This document shows positions 1,042 through 64,000 of a DNA stretch of 64,000 nucleotides, one piece after another. The stretch covers positions 32,001 to 96,000 of IMG/VR virus record IMGVR_UViG_3300031857_011362, one strand, 5' to 3'. Origin of the DNA: a virus. The notes beneath the pieces were generated by a model. The model had not been told where the DNA came from. It did not search any database and saw nothing but the letters and a program-made list of their open reading frames with translations. Both the position numbers and the translations under genes were made by a program. Within the stretch, counting starts at the first letter, position 1. Every line of letters begins with the position of its first letter.

Positions 1042-3195
1042 ATGGCCATTACTAGACTCCCCGGTTTCATTATAGACAGTACAACTTCGTTTACGTTTGC
1101 AAATGTAAGTGTGACGAGTAATGTCACGGCTAGTAATGCTAATTTAGGAAACGCAGCAACCGCAAACTTCTTTATAGGTAACGGTAGTCTATTGACAGGT
1201 ATCATTGCATCTGGTGGTACAGCAACTAAAACAGCAAATGGTACAAGTAACGTAGATATTACAACTGCTAATGGCAACATTACAATGGGTGTTGGTGGAA
1301 CCGGTAATGTAGTTATTGTAACTACCACTGGTGTTAATGTTGCAGGTACATTAAATGCGACTGGTAATCTAACAGCCGCTAATGCTAACTTGGGTAATCT
1401 AGTAATAGCTAATTTCTTTGCCGGTAATGGTAGTTCATTAACATCTATCACTGGTGCTAACGTAACAGGCGGAGTTAGTTTTGCGGCAACTGCAAATGCA
1501 GTAGCTGGTGCTAATGTCTCAGGTGCAGTAGCATATGCAACAACTGCTAACGCAGTAGCCGGCGCTAATGTCTCTGGACAAGTAGCTAATGCATTGGTCG
1601 CTGGTACTGTATATACTGCGGCCCAGCCAAATATCACCAGTGTTGGTACATTAACTAGTTTGGCTGTAACAGGTAATATCACATCTGGTAATGCTAACTT
1701 AGGTAACTTAGTTACAGCTAATTTCTTTACTGGTAACGGTAGTTTATTAAGTTCATTAACTTTTGGTAATATCACAACTTTCAGTACTGCCGGAATAACT
1801 ACAGATGAATTATATCTACCTAGTACAACACGGCTAAATGTCACTGCTAGTGGATCAAGTGGATATCTATTTGACCAACACGGCGCTACAATAAATCCTG
1901 CAATATATGTTACTAGTGGTCAAACATTGGCATTTAACTTAAATGTATCTGGTCATCCATTTTTAATTCAAACAAGTGGTGGTGCAAACTATAATGTTGG
2001 TTTAGAACATGTTGATAGTACAGGAACAGTATTAACTACTAGTTCAGCACAAGGACAAGTAGCAGGAACATTATACTGGAAGATACCGTATGGCATAACA
2101 GGTAATTACAAATATATATGCTCTATTCATGGTGGGATGAATGGTAATATTGTTGTAACCGACGCAAATGTTGCGAACATAACTGTTGGATTGGCAACAT
2201 ATGCTACTACAGCTAATGCAGTAGCAGGAGCTAATGTCTCTGGTCAAGTAGGCAATGCATTAATCGCAGACACAGTTTATACTGCGGCTCAACCTAATAT
2301 TACAAGTGTCGGCACATTAACAAGTTTAGCCGTTACTGGTAATATCACATCTGGCAACGCTAATTTAGGTAATGCAGTCACTGCTAATTACTTTATTGGT
2401 GACGGTAGTATGTTGACTGGTATTACTGGTGGTGGCGGTGGTGGCGGCACCCCCGGCGGGGCAAACACTTATATTCAGTTCAATGACGGTAGTGTTTTTG
2501 CAGGTAATGCAGGTTTAACTTTTAATAAAACAAATACTGTTCTTACTGCAAATAATTTAGTAGTAACGGCGACCACTAACTTAGGAGCTGTTAGTAACAT
2601 TACAGTTACTGGCGGCGTGGGTGGTCAAGTACTTGGTACTAATGGTAGCAATATTCTGTCTTGGATTACTCCAGCAACAACTTCAATCACATCGACAACT
2701 GGTATTACGGTTGATACATTTACAGGTGATGGTTCAACTGTAGTGTTCCCTTTAAGTGTTACCCCAGCAACTATTACGCAAACTCAAGTTAACTATAACG
2801 GTGTGTTGCAATTGCGTTCTGCATATACACTGACTGGTTCGACTATTATATTCTCAACTGCGCCAATAAGTGGGTCATTAATTGAAATCACAACGACACA
2901 GGGAGTTAGTGCAACTTCGGGTTCATACGGAGTGCGTTCATACACTGGTACAGGTTCACTAACTACATTTACAGTAACAAATGGCTCAACTACTAGTAGT
3001 GTGCTTGTTACAGAAAACGGAGTATTACAAACCCCAACAACTGATTACACGGTATCAGGTACTGTACTAACCTTCACTACAGCACCGGCTAATGGGGTGT
3101 CAATACAAATTAGAGAGCTTGGTATTTTCGTAGTAAATACCACATCACCTACAACGACTGACATATTAAGTCCGTTCTTATTGATGGGAGCTTAA
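1042..3195 (+). CDS. Virion fibre/baseplate-associated structural protein with an internal cupredoxin-like domain
   Basis: Repeated ANANLGN..ANFFxGNG and AQPNITSVGTLTSL segments, C-terminal FTGDGSTxxFxL modules, HPF...YICSIHGGMNG motif; SD AAGGA upstream. Confidence 0.7.
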   Translation: MAITRLPGFIIDSTTSFTFANVSVTSNVTASNANLGNAATANFFIGNGSLLTGIIASGGTATKTANGTSNVDITTANGNITMGVGGTGNVVIVTTTGVNVAGTLNATGNLTAANANLGNLVIANFFAGNGSSLTSITGANVTGGVSFAATANAVAGANVSGAVAYATTANAVAGANVSGQVANALVAGTVYTAAQPNITSVGTLTSLAVTGNITSGNANLGNLVTANFFTGNGSLLSSLTFGNITTFSTAGITTDELYLPSTTRLNVTASGSSGYLFDQHGATINPAIYVTSGQTLAFNLNVSGHPFLIQTSGGANYNVGLEHVDSTGTVLTTSSAQGQVAGTLYWKIPYGITGNYKYICSIHGGMNGNIVVTDANVANITVGLATYATTANAVAGANVSGQVGNALIADTVYTAAQPNITSVGTLTSLAVTGNITSGNANLGNAVTANYFIGDGSMLTGITGGGGGGGTPGGANTYIQFNDGSVFAGNAGLTFNKTNTVLTANNLVVTATTNLGAVSNITVTGGVGGQVLGTNGSNILSWITPATTSITSTTGITVDTFTGDGSTVVFPLSVTPATITQTQVNYNGVLQLRSAYTLTGSTIIFSTAPISGSLIEITTTQGVSATSGSYGVRSYTGTGSLTTFTVTNGSTTSSVLVTENGVLQTPTTDYTVSGTVLTFTTAPANGVSIQIRELGIFVVNTTSPTTTDILSPFLLMGA

Positions 3196-56916: not shown

Positions 56917-58432
56917 CGTGTAGCCATTCGTAGTTGTTGATTAGTTTAAGTTTTTCGTTATCGTTTTTGTTTGCTTCGCCATATAGCTTGCCCATCAATG
57001 CACCTCGAATTGTCTCACGACCGTATTGTTCTTCAGCACCAACACTGCACCACGTGAACAGTCTGTCTAATGTTTCACTTGATTGTTGCCTGTCAATAAC
57101 TTGGCTAGATAGTTTGACACATTCACGGAAAGCAGTACGCCAAGAACTAAACTCATCTGTGTTAAACTTGTGTATGTTGCTTATGATGTGTACAGGCTCA
57201 TACAGTGTGCTAATGCTGGTAGTCATATCTACTTTATCAGTACTCATACGCATGGTAGCAAGACGAGGAAGCAGTTTAATTCCACCGTGACCGTATACTA
57301 ATTTGTTTACAGGATTGATAGAACGAAATACTCTGACAGTAGGTTGTTCGTAAAACTTCACATCATTGTATACAAAGTTAAAATCATCGTGTATGATTGC
57401 ATCACCATCTACTACCCAAAAGTAATCAGTCTGACACATCTTTGCCGCACGTATGTGTGCATTGTGTATACCCTGAACCCCACTCAATACTTTAGTACGG
57501 GGGAAACGTTCTTTAACTTTGTTGAAATTTTCTTCTGCTTCGGGTTCGTTGTTGTGAATGAATACAATATCATACTTTGGGGTATAGTTTACAGGGCTAC
57601 GTGTTGGGTTAGTAATACGGGTCCTGTAATCACTACATACCCAACCTTGTAGTGCTATCCCGATGTTATTATCGTTGGTCTTTTCTTTTATCAATATACC
57701 TAGTACATTTACTTCTTCTAATAATGTCCCTGGCATTACATTTGTCATATGCTCAAACAGTTTATCAAGGAATGAAAAATTCTTAACGTTGTTTGAACCG
57801 TCCCAGTAATTGACCTTGAGCATAAAGTAAGCTAGTCTTGCACCATAAACAGCGTATAGTCCGTTCTCTATATCTTCGCCAATGTGCATCCAACGCCATA
57901 TCCTATCATAATTACGCCAGTCTATGTTATCATCACGTGTGAGTTTTATGACTTCACGGAAGCCTGCACGCCATGCTTGTAGTGGGCTAGCATTAATGTG
58001 CAAATCGCTACCTATATTGTTTAGTTCTATGTACTTGTTTAACACAAAGTCAATGCTATCGTCATCACCGTTTTCGTGTGTACGCATTTCTATGATATGT
58101 TTAACAGGCCAGCATTTGATACCACCATTTCCATAACTAGTGCCATTGACAATGTTATATCCTGCATAGCTTATAACATCCTCATCCGAATACTCTATAT
58201 CAATATCAGTTGTATAGAAGTCATCTCTGACCCAATTGTCTCCGTCAATGATGACAACACGGTCAGTTGTTGCTAGTTTAGCACATTCTTTGTGTGCAGT
58301 ATCACTACCCTCTACCCCATGCACTCTTAGAGCATTTGGGTTTAGAGTTAATAAATGTTGATAGTTTTCTTCACAGTTTGGTTCATCATAGCTTAGAAAC
58401 ACTGTGGTATAGTCTGAGGGATTAAATCGCAT
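56891..58432 (-). CDS. Tandem two-domain GT-A glycosyltransferase-like protein
   Basis: Two homologous halves (FLSYDEP..VHGVEG..IIDGD / FIHNNEP..GVQG..VVDGD), each with GHGG/NGG..WR..FRE..KL. Confidence 0.65.
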   Translation of the reverse strand: MRFNPSDYTTVFLSYDEPNCEENYQHLLTLNPNALRVHGVEGSDTAHKECAKLATTDRVVIIDGDNWVRDDFYTTDIDIEYSDEDVISYAGYNIVNGTSYGNGGIKCWPVKHIIEMRTHENGDDDSIDFVLNKYIELNNIGSDLHINASPLQAWRAGFREVIKLTRDDNIDWRNYDRIWRWMHIGEDIENGLYAVYGARLAYFMLKVNYWDGSNNVKNFSFLDKLFEHMTNVMPGTLLEEVNVLGILIKEKTNDNNIGIALQGWVCSDYRTRITNPTRSPVNYTPKYDIVFIHNNEPEAEENFNKVKERFPRTKVLSGVQGIHNAHIRAAKMCQTDYFWVVDGDAIIHDDFNFVYNDVKFYEQPTVRVFRSINPVNKLVYGHGGIKLLPRLATMRMSTDKVDMTTSISTLYEPVHIISNIHKFNTDEFSSWRTAFRECVKLSSQVIDRQQSSETLDRLFTWCSVGAEEQYGRETIRGALMGKLYGEANKNDNEKLKLINNYEWLHDEYTKQLQ

Positions 58433-58437
58433 GACTG

Positions 58438-58454
58438 TATTTATAATGTAAATA
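58438..58454. promoter_or_regulatory. Back-to-back divergent late promoter boxes
   Basis: TATTTATA 58438-45 (5 nt from minus ATG); TAAATA 58449-54 (4 nt before ATG 58459). Confidence 0.75.
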
Positions 58455-58458
58455 TGTC

Positions 58459-59817
58459 ATGCTTAAGATTATTAGTTCGCCACCATTTGATGATTATAGT
58501 AAAAAACTGTTCTTTCAATTATTCGGTCAAAAGAAAAAATTGGGTCTGGATAGTGCTAGTTTTATATACTTGTGGACTGGACCATTAACTAATAACAACA
58601 CCTATTCATACAGCAATTCTATATCGTTTAATACAAACCCTACATCATTGCCCAAATTTGTTGATTTTATGTTATCTCATGCACGGATGCTAGCCGGTAA
58701 AAAAAGATTTTTTAACTCACGTGATGAAATGTTTTCTTTATATCTTGAGTATGTTGGGGTAGATGTTTCACGTGAAATATTTGACCAGTACTATTCTACC
58801 TATGTAGAAAGCATCATAGACCGTAGTACAATGGAAGATATGATTCAAGAGGCATGCATAAATGACGTTATAGTATTATTTGTCAAAGATCACTTTAGAA
58901 TAAATTTTAAAAATTCTTGGATTGATCCAATACCCGAACTGGTTACTTACTTTGCAAATTTGTGTAATTACTTCCCTGATAAAAAATTTATCATTGTTAC
59001 TAGTTTGGAAAACTTAGATAAAGAACTAAAATCTAGCAATTGTAAAATAGTGAACATGGGCGGAGATATAACTAATCAGATATCAAGTTATATGAATTTT
59101 ACCCCTTTGATAGAAAAATCCGCAACTAAGAATTTTATATCATTGAACCGAGGAGATAGACCCCATAGGGTGTATCTGGTTTCAAATTTATATGCTAAAA
59201 ATTTACACAATCACGGGCAGATTAGTTTATTAACCCCGCAGAACCCGAATGCAAAACTCAATGAAGCAATTATCTATAACTATAAAAATGACCAAAATTA
59301 TGAATTATCAAACATTGGTTTCAGTAAGTATGTGGCCGAACATAACCATCAGATAGCCGATAGCTATAATATTTACCCTCAGCGTGGTAATGACAATTTA
59401 CGAAATTTCCAAGATTCTTTACAGAGTAAGTATCTTAATAGTTATGTGGAATTTGTTTCGGAAACCAGTTTCAATGAAAAGAGCTTTAACATAACGGAAA
59501 AAACACTACATTTCATATACGGTTGCAATTATCCTATAATGATTTCTAGTCCCGGCGTAGTCAAATTTCTGCGAGAAATGGGAATAGATATGTTTGATGA
59601 TATAATTGACCATTCATATGATGATATAGAAGATCCTTGTGACCGCATAGTCCAGGCTATAAACAAAAATATAAAAATTTTAACTATGGATCTGAATTCT
59701 CTACGGAAACAGTGGGAAAATGATAAATACAGAATGGAGCAAAATATTAAATTTGTCCAGACCAAATTAGCTAAATTCTATCAGGATAGATTTTGGCAAC
59801 AGATTAAAGGATTATAA
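58459..59817 (+). CDS. Glycosyltransferase-like protein (GT-B-type C-terminus)
   Basis: FISLNR..HR..VSET..ITEKT..P..G..FDDIIDHSYD. Confidence 0.55.
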   Translation: MLKIISSPPFDDYSKKLFFQLFGQKKKLGLDSASFIYLWTGPLTNNNTYSYSNSISFNTNPTSLPKFVDFMLSHARMLAGKKRFFNSRDEMFSLYLEYVGVDVSREIFDQYYSTYVESIIDRSTMEDMIQEACINDVIVLFVKDHFRINFKNSWIDPIPELVTYFANLCNYFPDKKFIIVTSLENLDKELKSSNCKIVNMGGDITNQISSYMNFTPLIEKSATKNFISLNRGDRPHRVYLVSNLYAKNLHNHGQISLLTPQNPNAKLNEAIIYNYKNDQNYELSNIGFSKYVAEHNHQIADSYNIYPQRGNDNLRNFQDSLQSKYLNSYVEFVSETSFNEKSFNITEKTLHFIYGCNYPIMISSPGVVKFLREMGIDMFDDIIDHSYDDIEDPCDRIVQAINKNIKILTMDLNSLRKQWENDKYRMEQNIKFVQTKLAKFYQDRFWQQIKGL

Positions 59818-59818
59818 C

Positions 59819-60421
59819 ATGGTACATTACACACTGATGCAAGACGCAATCCCTTCAGTATTCAACATTGATTTTCTACAAGCATGTAGTCAAAAATTAG
59901 AATATTTTATAGATACTAAAACCCTATTAGGGGGAGAAGCTATTCACCCTATTAATGAAATAGATGAAATATTTGATTTATCAAACTCAGAGGAGTTTAA
60001 AACTATTGCAGTCAAAATTAATCCATTCAAGCGAGTAGTACTACACTATTTTGCATATAATAACTATCCTGCTGAAGAATACTCTGACTCTGAATATTAC
60101 ACTCAATTTACTGATACTGATGATTTTGATAAGTTTGTGGAACATTATTTTTCACCAGATAACCTTGAAGGACCGTTAGTGAACTCAAGTGACTACTACT
60201 TCACTGACAAGTTGTCGGTTACGTATTTGTTAGAATTTGACACTTTTGCCACCGACATAAAACAAATTCCAGAATTCAGTACAGTAGAAAATACTGATTA
60301 TTTTCACGTAGCTCAAGACTTATCTGCCGATTACCGTAGCTATTACACTACACAAGCTACAATTGATAAGGTCGCTCAAGTTTATGCTAAAGACCTTGCC
60401 AAATACGGATATACATTCTAA
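59819..60421 (+). CDS. Sulfotransfer_2-like protein (degenerate)
   Basis: INPFKRVV 3'-PB-like motif; YRSYY..VAQVYAKDLAKYGYTF tail; 5' PAPS motif not evident. Confidence 0.55.
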   Translation: MVHYTLMQDAIPSVFNIDFLQACSQKLEYFIDTKTLLGGEAIHPINEIDEIFDLSNSEEFKTIAVKINPFKRVVLHYFAYNNYPAEEYSDSEYYTQFTDTDDFDKFVEHYFSPDNLEGPLVNSSDYYFTDKLSVTYLLEFDTFATDIKQIPEFSTVENTDYFHVAQDLSADYRSYYTTQATIDKVAQVYAKDLAKYGYTF

Positions 60422-60455
60422 CAGTAGTCACCAATGGGTGACTGTATAAAGTTAC

Positions 60456-61059
60456 GTGATGCTAAACCAACCCAGTCTGGCAATTCTTATTGATTTTTGG
60501 AATCCAATAGCAATCAAAAGGGTTAACAATACTATTGAATTTTTGAGTACCAATGATACTATCAAAACTGTAGTATTATCAACTTATAATTCCCGCTCTG
60601 AGTTATTTTTTAATAATACTATTTGGTACCGTAATCGAAAAGAATGGTATAAAAAATCACCAACATGGGCCCAAAATAAGTCAACGGTAGAAGACACTGC
60701 ATATATAAAAAACAACAGTTTAAAAAATGTAACCACTGATACGCATATACTTCAGTATTATAATTCAAAACAATATCAAATTGCAATGCTCCAGTTACTG
60801 GGAACTAGAGTATTATTTGTCTATGCACCCGGAAATAAAAAACGTATATATATTTGGTTGTGCATGGGAGGACTGTGTTAAACATAGACCGATTGGTTAT
60901 TTGGCACTGTCACAGCTACAAAATGTTAACATATTAACTAATACTACTTTAGTAAGTAACATTGCAATGAAACGTCCCGATTTATCTTTAGATCGTGACT
61001 GGATCAATGTAGAGGGAAACGTATATAGGTATTTGGGCAACGAGAAGGTTGACTCTTAA
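60456..61059 (+). pseudogene. Isochorismatase-like hydrolase split by a frameshift near 60790
   Basis: ORF 60456-60881 (LAILIDFW..) continues in another frame as WELEYYL..VYIFGCAWEDCV (60781-61059). Confidence 0.6.
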
Positions 61060-61077
61060 TCGATATTCTGTTATACT
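61049..61077 (+). promoter_or_regulatory. sigma70-type promoter
   Basis: TTGACT-N17-TATACT. Confidence 0.7.
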
Positions 61078-61151
61078 TCACATATGAATTAAAAAGTGTA
61101 AATAACATATGTTAATTACACTAATTTGAAACCAGGACTAAATAACTTACT

Positions 61152-61289
61152 ATGATGAATAAAACTTGTAACACGCTGAAACATATGGGACTATGGCTGT
61201 CAATAGCCAGTGTATCCTTTACGCCAGTGTATCCAACAAGTATTCGCGGCTTAAATGATAACCAAGAGAGAGGCCCCGGGACTAGGTAA
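61152..61289 (+). CDS. Putative 45-aa leader peptide containing all 20 amino acids
   Basis: MMNKTCNTLKHMGLWLSIASVSFTPVYPTSIRGLNDNQERGPGTR*; TAAATA at 61139-44; hairpin 28 nt downstream. Confidence 0.55.
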   Translation: MMNKTCNTLKHMGLWLSIASVSFTPVYPTSIRGLNDNQERGPGTR

Positions 61290-61317
61290 CAAGTTAACAT
61301 CATAACTAAAATTATCT

Positions 61318-61350
61318 AACCCCTGGGAAACTAAAAAGTCTCAGGGGTTT
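61318..61350 (+). terminator. GC-rich terminator-like hairpin
   Basis: AACCCCTGGGA-aactaaaaag-TCTCAGGGGTT (11 bp, one G-U); short U tail. Confidence 0.65.
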
Positions 61351-61426
61351 CCAGTTAATGAAAGAAGCAAAATAAAAAACACTTGTTTTTTTACTTTTTT
61401 GATAAATAAAATGAAGGAATCATTTT

Positions 61427-61801
61427 ATGAACAAAGAACAAAAAAGCGAGTATGCGAAAGAAAGATATAAAAAGAATAGAGAAAGGTTACTAGAGTATCA
61501 GAACAAACGATACAACGAAACATTGGATATCTTCCAGCAATGGAGAAAAACTTTGAAGTGTTGTAGATGTGAGGAGAATGATGTTGCTTGTTTAGAGTTT
61601 CATCATAGCGATCCAGAGACAAAGGAAAATAATGTCGTAAGGATGGTATCTCGCAGTGTGAAGTCTGTTATCAAAGAACTCAAAAAATGTGTTGTAGTTT
61701 GTGCTAATTGTCATCGCAGGATACATGCGTATGACATAAAAACAGACCCTAACACCGAGGATCTAGGAACAAGTTTTGAAAATTTTTTGAAAGAAATTTG
61801 A
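61427..61801 (+). mobile_element. HNH endonuclease
   Basis: CCRC..LEFHH..C..VCANCHRRIH; own TAAATA and SD. Confidence 0.85.
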
Positions 61802-61826
61802 CAATAAATGGACAAAAAGATACAAT
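61798..61826 (+). promoter_or_regulatory. sigma70-type promoter
   Basis: TTGACA-N17-TACAAT. Confidence 0.8.
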
Positions 61827-61989
61827 ACAAAACTTCTGAAACAAAACGTGATTGGTATTCTACTCACACATTGACGAAGGAACAATACGCACAGTTGATA
61901 CAAAATAAGATCGACCGTGTAAAGTCTTATCAAGAGGCTACCAAGAAAGCTAACAAGCTAGCAGGTATCACTTGATAGGCAGCGTGAAC

Positions 61990-62122
61990 AGGCAACGAGA
62001 GCCGTAATACAGCGCAAAATGTATAGAATGGGCGGACAGGAAACATGAACGAGTGGCGATAACACTCTTAGTAAGACTCCTGGGTAGGGTATCAACCCTA
62101 TCATGTCGTGTAGCAATACACG
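61990..62122 (+). ncRNA. Candidate multi-stem structured RNA
   Basis: ACATGA/TCATGT closing GAGTG/CACTC and TAGGGT/ACCCTA hairpins; CGTGTA-GCAA-TACACG GNRA hairpin. Confidence 0.5.
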
Positions 62123-62210
62123 GCATTCTAAAACATACGTAGTGAAACACTTTAGCTTACAACGCTATACCCACACGACTCGGGAGTACTAGGTGTGTTT
62201 TAGAATGCCA
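62122..62210 (+). ncRNA. Cloverleaf-like element closed by a 17-bp stem, ending in CCA
   Basis: GGCATTCTAAAACATAC (62122-38) pairs with GTGTGTTTTAGAATGCC (62193-209); three small internal hairpins. Confidence 0.55.
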
Positions 62211-62211
62211 C

Positions 62212-62787
62212 TTAAGTATTTGGTGTATTATAGATTCTTTCTATATATTTTTTTATATTGTATATGTTAACAGGCTCTATGATCTTAGCATTATGTGACC
62301 CCAACAGATTATTGTTTAACAAATATTCATAAGTTAATTCTTCGTCAAATTTTATAGCTAAGTCATTGATTAATTTATCATTTTTGTTTATTATATCGAT
62401 TGATTTTCTAACCGAATCAGCTAGAAATTTTACTGTATATTTTTCACCTCGGGCAAGACTATTCTTTGAGTTCCATATTGTTGTCATCTCGGCTACATAG
62501 TAGCTAGCAATTTGTTCAATTTTATTTTCTCTGGTCAATTTTATTTTATAACAATCGCTGTTTAAAATTTCTTGATAAAGTAAATGTTTATCAATTTGGT
62601 CAGGCATAAATTTTACTACAAATGGTTCGTTATTTACAAACAACTTTTCTAAAAGATTGTATTCTTCTTCATAAAGATGCGGTTCAGGAAAACATTTGGC
62701 TTCATTGTCTTTTGATAATTTGAAAGTGTAGTCACTAGAACCTGTTCTATAATTTGCCAATAGTAATATACGATTTTTTGTTGTCAT
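62212..62787 (-). CDS. Stf0-like sulfotransferase-fold protein
   Basis: ILLLANYRTGSS; LTREN..QIASYYVA; TAAATA-N4-ATG. Confidence 0.6.
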   Translation of the reverse strand: MTTKNRILLLANYRTGSSDYTFKLSKDNEAKCFPEPHLYEEEYNLLEKLFVNNEPFVVKFMPDQIDKHLLYQEILNSDCYKIKLTRENKIEQIASYYVAEMTTIWNSKNSLARGEKYTVKFLADSVRKSIDIINKNDKLINDLAIKFDEELTYEYLLNNNLLGSHNAKIIEPVNIYNIKKYIERIYNTPNT

Positions 62788-62825
62788 TCGATATTTAGTT
62801 ATTGTCTTTCAACCACGTTAATAAT

Positions 62826-62902
62826 GCGACCTTAGCTCAGATGGATAGAGCACCAGGCTACGAACTTGGGGGTCAGGAGTTCGAATCTCTTAGGTCGCAC
62901 CA
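62826..62902 (+). tRNA. trnR: tRNA-Arg(ACG)
   Basis: Acceptor GCGACCT/AGGTCGC; loop CT-ACG-AA; TTCGAAT; encoded CCA. Confidence 0.95.
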
Positions 62903-62904
62903 AT

Positions 62905-62979
62905 GGATGTATAACACAGCGGTAGTGTATCTCCTTCATACGGAGCAGGTCAGTAGTTCAAATCTACTTACATCCACCA
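62905..62979 (+). tRNA. tRNA-Met/Ile2(CAT), not initiator type
   Basis: GGATGTA/TACATCC; loop TT-CAT-AC; CCA; lacks fMet hallmarks. Confidence 0.85.
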
Positions 62980-62987
62980 AACAATAT

Positions 62988-63064
62988 AGCCTCATAGCTC
63001 AGTTGGTTAGAGCACCGTCTTGATAAGGCGGGGGTCCTGTGTTCGAGTCACAGTGAGGCTACCA
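62988..63064 (+). tRNA. trnI: tRNA-Ile(GAT)
   Basis: AGCCTCA/TGAGGCT; TT-GAT-AA; CCA. Confidence 0.95.
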
Positions 63065-63071
63065 AATTTAT

Positions 63072-63145
63072 TCCCGGATTGTGTAATGGTAGCACAACAG
63101 ACTTTGACTCTGTTAGCCTAGGTTCGATCCCTAGTCCGGGTGCCA
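63072..63145 (+). tRNA. trnQ: tRNA-Gln(TTG)
   Basis: ACAGA-CT-TTG-AC-TCTGT; U1:U72 mismatch; G73 then CCA. Confidence 0.92.
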
Positions 63146-63149
63146 GTTT

Positions 63150-63302
63150 ATGGGATAGACGATAGGTTCGAGTCCCTGTCAATCTAGTCACAGTGGGGTT
63201 AACTGTGATGACACTATAGTATGATTGATGGGTGTATAAACTTGCCTATACGAGACAATCTAACGAGGCTTATTAACAATAAGATAGTTAGGCGCCCAAT
63301 CT
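63150..63302 (+). ncRNA. Candidate structured RNA or tRNA remnant in the array spacer
   Basis: GATAGG-TTCGAGTC-CCTGTC T-arm-like hairpin, TCACAGT/ACTGTGA, GGGTGT/GCGCCC, CTTATT/AATAAG. Confidence 0.4.
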
Positions 63303-63312
63303 ATAAGGAGTT

Positions 63313-63684
63313 ATGATGTTAAAACAATTTACTATTGATGAAAAATTTATATGTGATGTTACTGTTAGAACTGAATTCGATTTAGTCAAAGATAGAAACA
63401 ATCCCACATATGATGATCTTATCAAAGTCCTTAAAGGATGGGATAAGATGACTAGCACTAGTAACAAAGACCACGATGAATTTACCAAGTTACGTAATCA
63501 ATTAGAAGAACTGGGTTATATCAAAATTGAACGTGGATGGTGGAACGGTGACAGAGTATTAAAATCGTTCAAGTTAAACGAATGGACTTTTCGTAAAGGA
63601 CATAAATTTTCTTGTGCGGCAGCAATGAACAACAGTATTCATTGTGCTAGAAAATTCGGATGGAAGACTATTTCATCTTTATAA
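63313..63684 (+). CDS. Hypothetical protein within the tRNA array
   Basis: SD AAGGAG; 123 aa; no motif recognised. Confidence 0.7.
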   Translation: MMLKQFTIDEKFICDVTVRTEFDLVKDRNNPTYDDLIKVLKGWDKMTSTSNKDHDEFTKLRNQLEELGYIKIERGWWNGDRVLKSFKLNEWTFRKGHKFSCAAAMNNSIHCARKFGWKTISSL

Positions 63685-63687
63685 TAT

Positions 63688-63763
63688 GGTGTTGGTAGCT
63701 CAATGGTAGAGCAACGGATTGTGATTCCGTTGGTTGTGGGTTCGAGTCCCATCCTTCACCCCA
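63688..63763 (+). tRNA. trnH: tRNA-His(GTG) with encoded G-1
   Basis: ACGGA-TT-GTG-AT-TCCGT; G-1:C73; two U:U mismatches in the acceptor stem. Confidence 0.88.
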
Positions 63764-63767
63764 ATAT

Positions 63768-63843
63768 GCAACTTTAGCTGATGTGGTCATAGCGGCGGTC
63801 TGAAGAACCGTTGAACGTGGTTCGATCCCACGAGGTTGCACCA
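63768..63843 (+). tRNA. trnF: tRNA-Phe(GAA)
   Basis: GCAACTT/AGGTTGC; CT-GAA-GA; CCA. Confidence 0.93.
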
Positions 63844-63848
63844 GACAT

Positions 63849-63935
63849 GCCCCCATAGACAAATTGGCAAAGTCACTCTCCTCAAAAGGGAGTATCTTAA
63901 AGGAAATCTGAGTTCGAATCTCAGTGGGGGCACCA
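63849..63935 (+). tRNA. trnL: tRNA-Leu(CAA)
   Basis: GCCCCCA/TGGGGGC; CT-CAA-AA; long variable region; CCA. Confidence 0.93.
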
Positions 63936-63939
63936 ATAG

Positions 63940-63968
63940 TTGACAACAAACACATTTTGTGTTATGAT
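63940..63968 (+). promoter_or_regulatory. sigma70-type promoter
   Basis: TTGACA-N17-TATGAT. Confidence 0.8.
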
Positions 63969-63975
63969 ATATTAA

Positions 63976-64000
63976 GGGTCTTTAGTTCAATGGATAGAAT
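63976..64000 (+). tRNA. 5' part of a further tRNA (cut by the window end)
   Basis: GGGTCTT-TA-GTTC-AATGGATA-GAAT acceptor and D-arm pattern. Confidence 0.7.

Follow-up and report, generated by a model that had tools for sequence, protein, structure and literature searches.

A conserved leader peptide with all 20 amino acids, part of a putative transcription attenuator, upstream of the tRNA operon of an uncultured freshwater phage

Organization of the leader locus

We analyzed the region preceding the tRNA genes in a stretch of 64,000 nt, here called the window, of the 124-kb viral record IMGVR_UViG_3300031857_011362, which is derived from a metagenome (CheckV completeness 35%). This region carries an open reading frame (ORF) of 45 codons at positions 61152-61289, here named the leader ORF, which encodes all 20 amino acids and is followed by a hairpin and by a tRNA array. 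The same module was present in more than 110 uncultured freshwater viral contigs. The leader probably belongs to a ribosome-mediated attenuator of transcription, which measures decoding as a whole and controls whether the polymerase reads through into a structured RNA and the tRNA operon. The features from the TGGGYAA box to the tRNA array lie on the plus strand unless stated otherwise.

The phage encodes a tail-fibre-like protein with about 42% identity to proteins of T4-like Synechococcus phages, and DNA matching the stretch was present in freshwater and lake samples. Several of the related contigs are 250-520 kb long. Among cultured phages no match to 60700-62300 was obtained by blastn, and tblastn with the peptide gave only one spurious match (E 0.3). 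No isolate carries the leader module, which is present in a single copy in this phage genome.

The module is self-contained and approximately 270 nt in size. Its order is a TGGGYAA box, promoter P1, a 5' hairpin, a 16-mer, the ORF, a conserved 3' untranslated region (UTR) and a hairpin, while the genes upstream of it vary among the contigs. The TGGGYAA box (61034-61040) is located upstream of the -35 element, and TGGG.AA was invariant in 11 aligned loci with differing upstream genes. P1 (61049-61077) is composed of TTGACT (61049-61054), a spacer of 17 nt and an extended -10 element, TGn-TATACT (61069-61077). It is a promoter of the sigma70 type, as stated in a preliminary description of the region, and matches the consensus at 10/12 positions with a predicted transcription start near 61084. 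GTTGAC and TATACTTCA were invariant among the aligned relatives, and 63/73 distinct loci had, at a fixed distance, a sequence matching the consensus in at least 10/12 positions.

The leader transcript carries a 5' stem-loop (61096-61121) which is a near-perfect palindrome. In relatives a hairpin of different sequence occupies the same position. Further downstream follows the invariant 16-mer AACCAGGACTAAATAA (61130-61145), which includes a likely ribosome-binding AGGA and whose CCAGG is able to pair alternatively with CCUGG of the terminator 5' arm. At least 119 viral contigs contained an exact match to the 16-mer, and approximately 118 loci, these included, carried an ORF of the family with its ATG 4-8 nt downstream of the 16-mer. 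Both the TGGGYAA box and the 16-mer were conserved more strictly than the peptide. A promoter or a ribosome-binding site alone explains neither of them.

The leader ORF and its family

The leader ORF uses 34 distinct codons and ends with a stop codon at 61287-61289. Nine amino acids occur only once in its peptide. A search of 5.8 billion proteins revealed six homologues of 45-46 amino acids (aa) with 61-89% identity. Of the 39 matches in a profile search against 1.8 billion representatives about 25 were peptides of 43-59 aa. The long matches were WD40-repeat proteins, in which a weak resemblance to one repeat was summed over many repeats, and homology was not accepted.

In all 73 distinct full-length loci the leader frame was intact despite many in-frame length changes and identities below 40%, while the remaining two frames of the strand contained 4-6 stops each. 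The ratio of nonsynonymous to synonymous substitution rates (dN/dS) was mostly 0.15-0.4 and below 1 in most pairs. Several synonymous codons were used at conserved Pro, Arg, Asn and Gly positions (Pro: CCT 29, CCA 28, CCG 11; Arg: CGC 58, CGT 14). Likewise, the stretch Y-P-(T)-S-I-R-G and other positions were conserved as amino acids with synonymous codon change. Judged by this evolutionary signature, the leader ORF looks translated. The first 18 nt of the ORF were invariant in the clade of the window. The GC content at third codon positions was 0.44 in the leader compared to 0.28 in the genome, which may be a reflection of RNA helices only.

AlphaFold2 did not predict a confident fold for the peptide (pLDDT 64, pTM 0.21), which suits a leader peptide. 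Neither the leader peptide nor an antisense ORF of 60 aa had a match in Pfam or PHROGs. The antisense ORF was dropped from the analysis, as one relative has a stop in the antisense frame.

Retention of all 20 amino acids

According to the preliminary description a 45-aa peptide containing every amino acid would arise by chance at a rate of a few percent. We computed 2.1-2.2% by composition and 1.5% in 45-aa windows of the phage's own proteins. The window contains 49 ATG-initiated ORFs of 40-50 aa, of which about one is expected to be complete and one was seen. Three other complete ORFs of 54-59 aa are present in the genome. The completeness of the window ORF alone is therefore not above chance, and its significance comes only via the relatives.

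Among 97 distinct peptides of the family (43-58 aa, down to less than 40% identity) all 20 residues were present in 84, 19 residues in 11 and 18 residues in two. Two null models were applied to this count. Simulation along the family tree with per-site rates and a complete root (200 runs) gave 10.4 ± 6.8 complete leaves and never more than 35. Shuffling of residues within alignment columns, by which every conserved column is kept (2000 shuffles), gave 23 ± 3.7 complete peptides with a maximum of 37. At 60% identity a non-redundant set contained 22/27 complete peptides compared to 3.8 expected, and at 50% identity 9/10 compared to 1.6. Retention of the 20 residues despite divergence had been proposed as a check on the leader, and the observed 84/97 peptides compared to 10-23 under the nulls speak in its favour.

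The excess of complete leaders arises because residues lost at their usual column reappear elsewhere in the peptide. Trp was found elsewhere in 4/4 cases of loss (0.3 expected), His in 19/20 (4.9 expected), Cys in 9/15 (2.2 expected), Asp in 26/29 (11.3 expected) and Tyr in 16/16 (7.3 expected). An internal Met was present in 72/73 leaders. The number of distinct codons per leader was 35 on average compared to 26.7 ± 3.2 in windows of the same size from phage proteins. As a control, the family of the neighbouring ORF55 (see below) was never complete (0/32, 16-18 residue types). No enrichment for any one amino acid was found in the leader; all 20 were kept instead. By this comparison, leader completeness is under selection.

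By our own wobble count approximately 42 of the 45 leader codons can be read by the 28 phage tRNAs. A test for a match between leader codons and phage tRNAs was non-discriminating, because the tRNA set reads nearly all codons.

Terminator and competing RNA folds

The GC hairpin that had been noted downstream of the ORF was confirmed as a putative intrinsic terminator (61318-61352). It consists of an 11-bp stem (61318-61328 with 61339-61349, including one G-U pair), a loop of 10 nt and a weak tail, TTTCC, so that the earlier remark on a short U tail holds as well. A terminator scanner did not call this hairpin because its T run is short. In 69/69 loci a hairpin was located 20-34 nt after the stop codon. 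Its tail was mostly TTTTT, and compensatory variants occurred in the stem.

The putative 5' strand of an antiterminator, GCCCCGGGACU (61273-61283), lies within codons 41-44 and pairs with the terminator 5' arm. Within the window it was the best partner of this arm (-13.2 kcal/mol, z -2.2). In most of the 69 loci, too, no upstream sequence paired better with the 5' arm than the strand at the ORF end, which lay at approximately -14 from the stop codon in 37 loci and at approximately -34 in 22. Over all loci the median z of the pairing against shuffles was -3.1, with 83% of the loci below -2. In the clade of the window the partner is GCCCGGGGA at approximately -14, forming 7 bp with -15.4 kcal/mol; the terminator has -16 to -19. 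For the clade whose peptides have 52-58 aa the partner is CCAGGG(A/G)GUUUCA at approximately -34, forming 11-14 bp with GAAACCCCUGG; here the energies were -19 to -23 kcal/mol for the antiterminator and -19 to -22 for the terminator. RNAalifold missed the full antiterminator of this long-peptide clade because the strand was one column off in half the rows, and the structure was taken from per-sequence duplexes. Complementarity between the 3' end of the ORF and the terminator 5' arm was present in every major clade, which places the stop codon inside the antiterminator hairpin. When the RNA was folded as a nascent transcript still lacking the 3' arm, the ORF-end pairing was found in 6/8 representatives, and in one the minimum-energy fold of the full-length RNA contained it. 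In 68/69 leaders the set of 20 amino acids is completed ahead of the antiterminator strand, even where 10-14 codons follow the strand.

A mutually exclusive fold between the last codons and the hairpin had already been suggested in the preliminary description, where the right arm was named as the partner. In the window CCCCGGGACT (61274-61283) can indeed pair with either terminator arm. The exclusive fold is conserved, but its conserved partner is the 5' arm and not the 3' arm. The 10-mer GGCCCGGGGA was kept across relatives while one reading frame translates it as ...GPGTR and another as ...ARGTE. The constraint is therefore on the RNA and not on the peptide RGPG. The idea of a C-terminal RGPG arrest motif had to be abandoned accordingly, since relatives end with ARGTE, PRGTE, SQGTE or PGSFIEG and the nucleotide motif is kept instead.

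Further predicted helices involve the ORF. A helix closing the ORF is formed by a 5' strand spanning both AUG codons (61151-61169) and a 3' strand immediately after the stop codon (61289-61304). RNAalifold paired 61151-61157 with 61298-61304 and 61163-61169 with 61289-61295. In the window the duplex had -12.8 kcal/mol and a z of -4.7, and it covaried between clades (AUGAUG/CAUCAU, ACUAUG/CAUAGU and AUAUGAAC/GUUCAUAU). The non-coding stretch after the stop was nearly invariant within the clade of the window. The closing helix could restrict translation to the first ribosome. A hairpin in the middle of the ORF (61191-61212) belongs to the consensus structure, with compensatory changes at 2 pairs, and is possibly a pause hairpin. 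An anti-antiterminator of the 1:2 type between the I-R-G codons and a CCCNGGG strand was seen by RNAalifold; it was weak and bulged and was not relied on. A search of 58000-64000 against Rfam (E ≤1) gave only tRNAs and sub-threshold matches overlapping tRNAs, and neither a T-box nor any other family was found.

The downstream tRNA unit

Whether homologous leaders precede tRNA arrays in related phages had been raised as another check. An array of 4-21 tRNAs on the same strand followed the leader in 64/64 loci with at least 1500 nt of downstream sequence, beginning 313-2067 nt after the leader stop codon. On one strand of the phage genome (genome positions 94826-105927) ARAGORN detected 28 tRNA genes, three of them for CAU tRNAs, which together serve all 20 amino acids. 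Seven of the 28 genes are within the window, where the array starts (62826-63935). A promoter-like sequence, TTGACA-17-TATGAT, was observed inside the array at 63940-63968. From the comparison of the loci the ancestral order is leader, terminator, an optional promoter P2 with an ORF of 49-55 aa, a structured RNA of approximately 230 nt and directly the first tRNA.

P2 (61798-61826) consists of TTGACA, 17 nt and TACAAT with a consensus match of 11/12. It was present in 46/62 loci, in 45 of them with a match of at least 10/12. In the other 16 loci none was found within 140 nt of the terminator. The window is counted among these 16, since an inserted HNH homing-endonuclease gene (61427-61801; PHROG HNH match, E 2e-24) moves P2 beyond the scanned 140 nt. 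Both the HNH gene and the second promoter had been named as caveats in the preliminary description. Relatives lack the HNH gene at this site, and there P2 lies 20-40 nt past the terminator. The HNH stop codon falls in the -35 element of P2, and other loci carry other HNH genes within their tRNA arrays. Approximately 15 of the 62 loci lacked any promoter downstream of the terminator and ahead of the structured RNA and tRNAs. In many loci without P2 the terminator adjoins the structured RNA, and therefore P1 is the sole visible promoter there.

ORF55 (61808-61975) encodes 55 aa and is conserved at the protein level (KR.W...HTLT.EQ..LI). Its ATG is located inside the P2 spacer, so that only transcripts started upstream, for example by read-through from P1, can encode it. 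The structured RNA (61978-62210) is composed of a conserved core and a cassette closed by a long stem, and adjoins the first tRNA directly in relatives. The core (61978-62121) contains GGCAACGAGRGCC ... GGGCGGAC ... GGCGA.AAC ... and a covarying GGGTAT/ACCC hairpin. Nearly all related loci have this core downstream of the leader module and ahead of the first tRNA, and it had no Rfam match. The stem of the cassette (62122-62210), ATTCTAAAACA ... TGTTTTAGAAT, showed compensatory changes at all 10 pairs, while the enclosed core varied between loci; the first tRNA is immediately next in relatives. In the window a gene of 191 aa on the minus strand (62212-62787) is located between the structured RNA and tRNA-Arg. 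This site is empty in relatives. The gene had only a weak resemblance to Stf0 sulphotransferases (E 0.0035).

RNA contigs and upstream region

RNA of the locus was available as assembled contigs from lakes, from which neither levels nor transcript ends can be read. Contigs of three lake metatranscriptomes covered 61079-61369 and not 60594-61078, which is consistent with transcription from P1. One contig (61165-61516), a perfect match, runs past the terminator into the HNH gene. Contigs of three lake metatranscriptomes all stop at 62056-62059 inside the core of the structured RNA. An approximately four-fold drop in RNA-contig depth after 61370 was not counted as termination, since depth in contigs does not allow the parts of one transcript to be ranked.

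Upstream of the module two ORFs (60456-60881 and 60781-61059) overlap in different frames. They had no family match and no relatives, and represent either two orphan genes or one frameshifted gene. The ORF 60781-61059 terminates within P1. No relatives were found for the upstream ORF of 92 aa.

Late boxes had been reported ahead of the leader ORF. These are GTAAATA and CTAAATA, and neither matches the late promoter consensus of cyanomyoviruses, NATAAATA (PMC2984593). CTAAATA was rejected as a late promoter on account of this consensus and because structural genes of this phage carry ATAAATA. The latter precedes the ATG by exactly 11 nt in several structural genes (window positions 3195, 5626, 7640 and others). 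This spacing is very short for a late promoter of the T4 type and suggests very short leaders of the late mRNAs. The HNH gene has its own box of the NATAAATA type, GATAAATA, at 61401-61408.

Proposed mechanism and alternative explanations

Comparison of the sequences shows the parts of the module and how they are conserved. It also shows that the folds compete, that completeness is selected and that the module is linked to tRNA arrays. We infer from these results that termination responds to translation of the leader. Host RNA polymerase would initiate at P1, near 61084, and a ribosome would translate the 45-codon leader. The strand 61273-61283, being complementary to the 5' arm of the terminator (61318-61328), would form the antiterminator hairpin. 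A ribosome that keeps pace with the polymerase would unwind or cover this strand, so that the terminator (61318-61349) folds and the transcript ends. If the ribosome lagged at any codon the antiterminator would persist and the polymerase would continue into the structured RNA and the tRNA genes. This direction, from fast translation to termination and from a lagging ribosome to read-through, is suggested by analogy with attenuators of the trp type. Since the leader contains every amino acid and unusually many distinct codons, its translation would slow down whenever any charged tRNA runs short. In this way the switch would gauge the overall decoding capacity and provide feedback on the phage's own complete tRNA set, with the structured RNA as the first product of the gated operon.

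The proposal of the preliminary description, a switch for overall translation status ahead of the tRNAs, is upheld with regard to the link between leader and tRNAs, the completeness and the exclusive fold. Its RGPG motif, late boxes and 3'-arm pairing are not part of the mechanism as given here.

It is possible, though we advance it tentatively, that the leader serves as a gauge for all tRNAs. It would report any decoding gap, raise transcription of the phage tRNAs and then shut off, thereby closing a homeostatic loop. Such a gap could be caused by a codon mismatch with the host, by host shut-off or by cleavage of tRNAs through an anti-phage anticodon nuclease. The stretch Y-P-T-S-I-R-G may add a pause of the nascent chain just before the antiterminator.

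Several observations weigh against an attenuator. The spacing of 13 nt between AGGA and AUG is long for a Shine-Dalgarno site. The U tract of the window is only TTT and termination may be weak. Nascent folds of the window and of the related locus L115 pair the terminator 5' arm with the 16-mer and not with the ORF end. Glu, Gln or Asp is often located only 2-4 codons upstream of the antiterminator strand, and a ribosome stalled there might cover the strand rather than free it. Most helices are invariant in the clade of the window, and for this reason the evidence from covariation comes only from the comparison between clades. A strong P2 follows the terminator in most loci and in the window, and read-through is therefore not the only route to tRNA transcription. 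In the window the HNH gene and the reverse-strand gene separate the switch from the tRNAs. Finally, shared ancestry inflates all family counts; both nulls correct for this in part, and the effect persists in the non-redundant sets.

Other explanations were also weighed. The module could be an ordinary early gene for a small trans-acting protein directed at the ribosome, tRNAs or a host factor, whose proximity to the tRNAs merely reflects shared early expression. It does form a complete transcription unit, P2 supplies the downstream genes with a promoter of their own in most loci, and Y-P-(T)-S-I-R-G and further positions are kept as amino acids despite synonymous change. However, such a gene would have no reason to maintain, in clade after clade, complementarity between its 3' codons and its own terminator, or to keep a nucleotide motif through a frame shift. 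There is also no known reason for a folded protein of 45 aa to require every amino acid and to relocate lost ones, and the peptide has neither a confident predicted fold nor a match in Pfam or PHROG. We regard this explanation as unlikely. Much the same holds for control at a level other than termination, which we consider about equally improbable. Here translation of the leader would determine stability or processing of the tRNA precursor, or would be limited to a single round, and the hairpin would mainly be a processing or stability element. The conserved helix between the start region and the 3' UTR with its covariation between clades, the weak U tract in the window and several relatives, and the RNA contigs crossing the hairpin would agree with this. 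On the other hand, most relatives carry a canonical GC stem followed by TTTTT, and it is specifically the terminator 5' arm to which the antiterminator strand is complementary.

A non-coding regulatory RNA with an incidental open frame would explain the strong predicted structure (z -3.3) and the invariant non-coding 16-mer and 3' UTR, together with the invariance at the very start of the ORF in the clade of the window. It is very unlikely nevertheless, because the frame is open in all full-length loci despite divergence and length changes while the other frames are not, third positions vary at conserved residues, and constraint on the RNA cannot account for amino-acid completeness. Coincidence, meaning a chance complete ORF beside an unrelated terminator, can hardly be maintained. 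A 64-kb window should contain about one such ORF by chance and the genome has three longer complete ORFs, but conservation in more than 110 loci with completeness retained and an invariable tRNA context contradicts chance.

To our knowledge, tRNA genes are common in phages while the control of their expression is largely unknown. If the attenuator operates as proposed, it would represent a new design in which a general sensor of decoding speed is wired to tRNA supply and heads a complete viral tRNA set. It would offer a testable model for the way large phages adjust tRNA output to demand, for their possible detection of depletion or cleavage of host tRNAs, and for the adaptation of their translation to hosts that differ in codon usage. 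The module might also serve as a generic sensor of translation stress. Literature searches did not reveal a description of a leader peptide preceding phage tRNA genes.

Comparison with known systems

T-box riboswitches bind one uncharged tRNA directly, without a leader peptide, and the choice between terminator and antiterminator is set by tRNA charging. Gating of read-through would be shared with the mechanism proposed here. The phage locus differs by its leader peptide and had no T-box match in Rfam.

With arrest peptides of the SecM and RAPG type the module shares a short conserved nascent peptide upstream of a regulated unit, in which I-R-G is kept. Unlike in these peptides, RGPG at the C terminus of the leader is not preserved at the amino-acid level. 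We take the likeness of I-R-G to the I-R-A-G-P of SecM to be a lead rather than support.

The classical leader-peptide attenuators, such as trpL, hisL, pheL, thrL, leuL and the ilv leaders, belong to amino-acid operons. They share with the phage module a promoter, a short leader ORF, an intrinsic terminator, the 5' strand of an antiterminator in the path of the ribosome and downstream genes on the same strand (for pheL see PMC3082878). There is no sequence relation between them and the phage leader. In leaders of amino-acid operons there are runs of regulatory codons for the one or few amino acids that are sensed, and the matching genes for biosynthetic enzymes follow, whereas the phage leader has no such enrichment, keeps all 20 residues and precedes tRNAs. 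The lack of regulatory-codon enrichment makes it a variant rather than a plain member of the leader-peptide attenuators.

Broad sensing of translation stress, as proposed for the phage leader, has a parallel in the upstream ORF (uORF) of mycobacterial whiB7. Stalling on this uORF is believed to cause antitermination, and it is activated by depletion of many amino acids, tRNAs and synthetases (PMC10274678). Its coding sequence determines what is sensed, is enriched in alanine and controls a transcription factor (PMC10274678). There is no homology between the two leaders. In contrast to the alanine-enriched whiB7 uORF with its bacterial transcription factor, the phage leader is complete and its proposed output is a viral tRNA operon.

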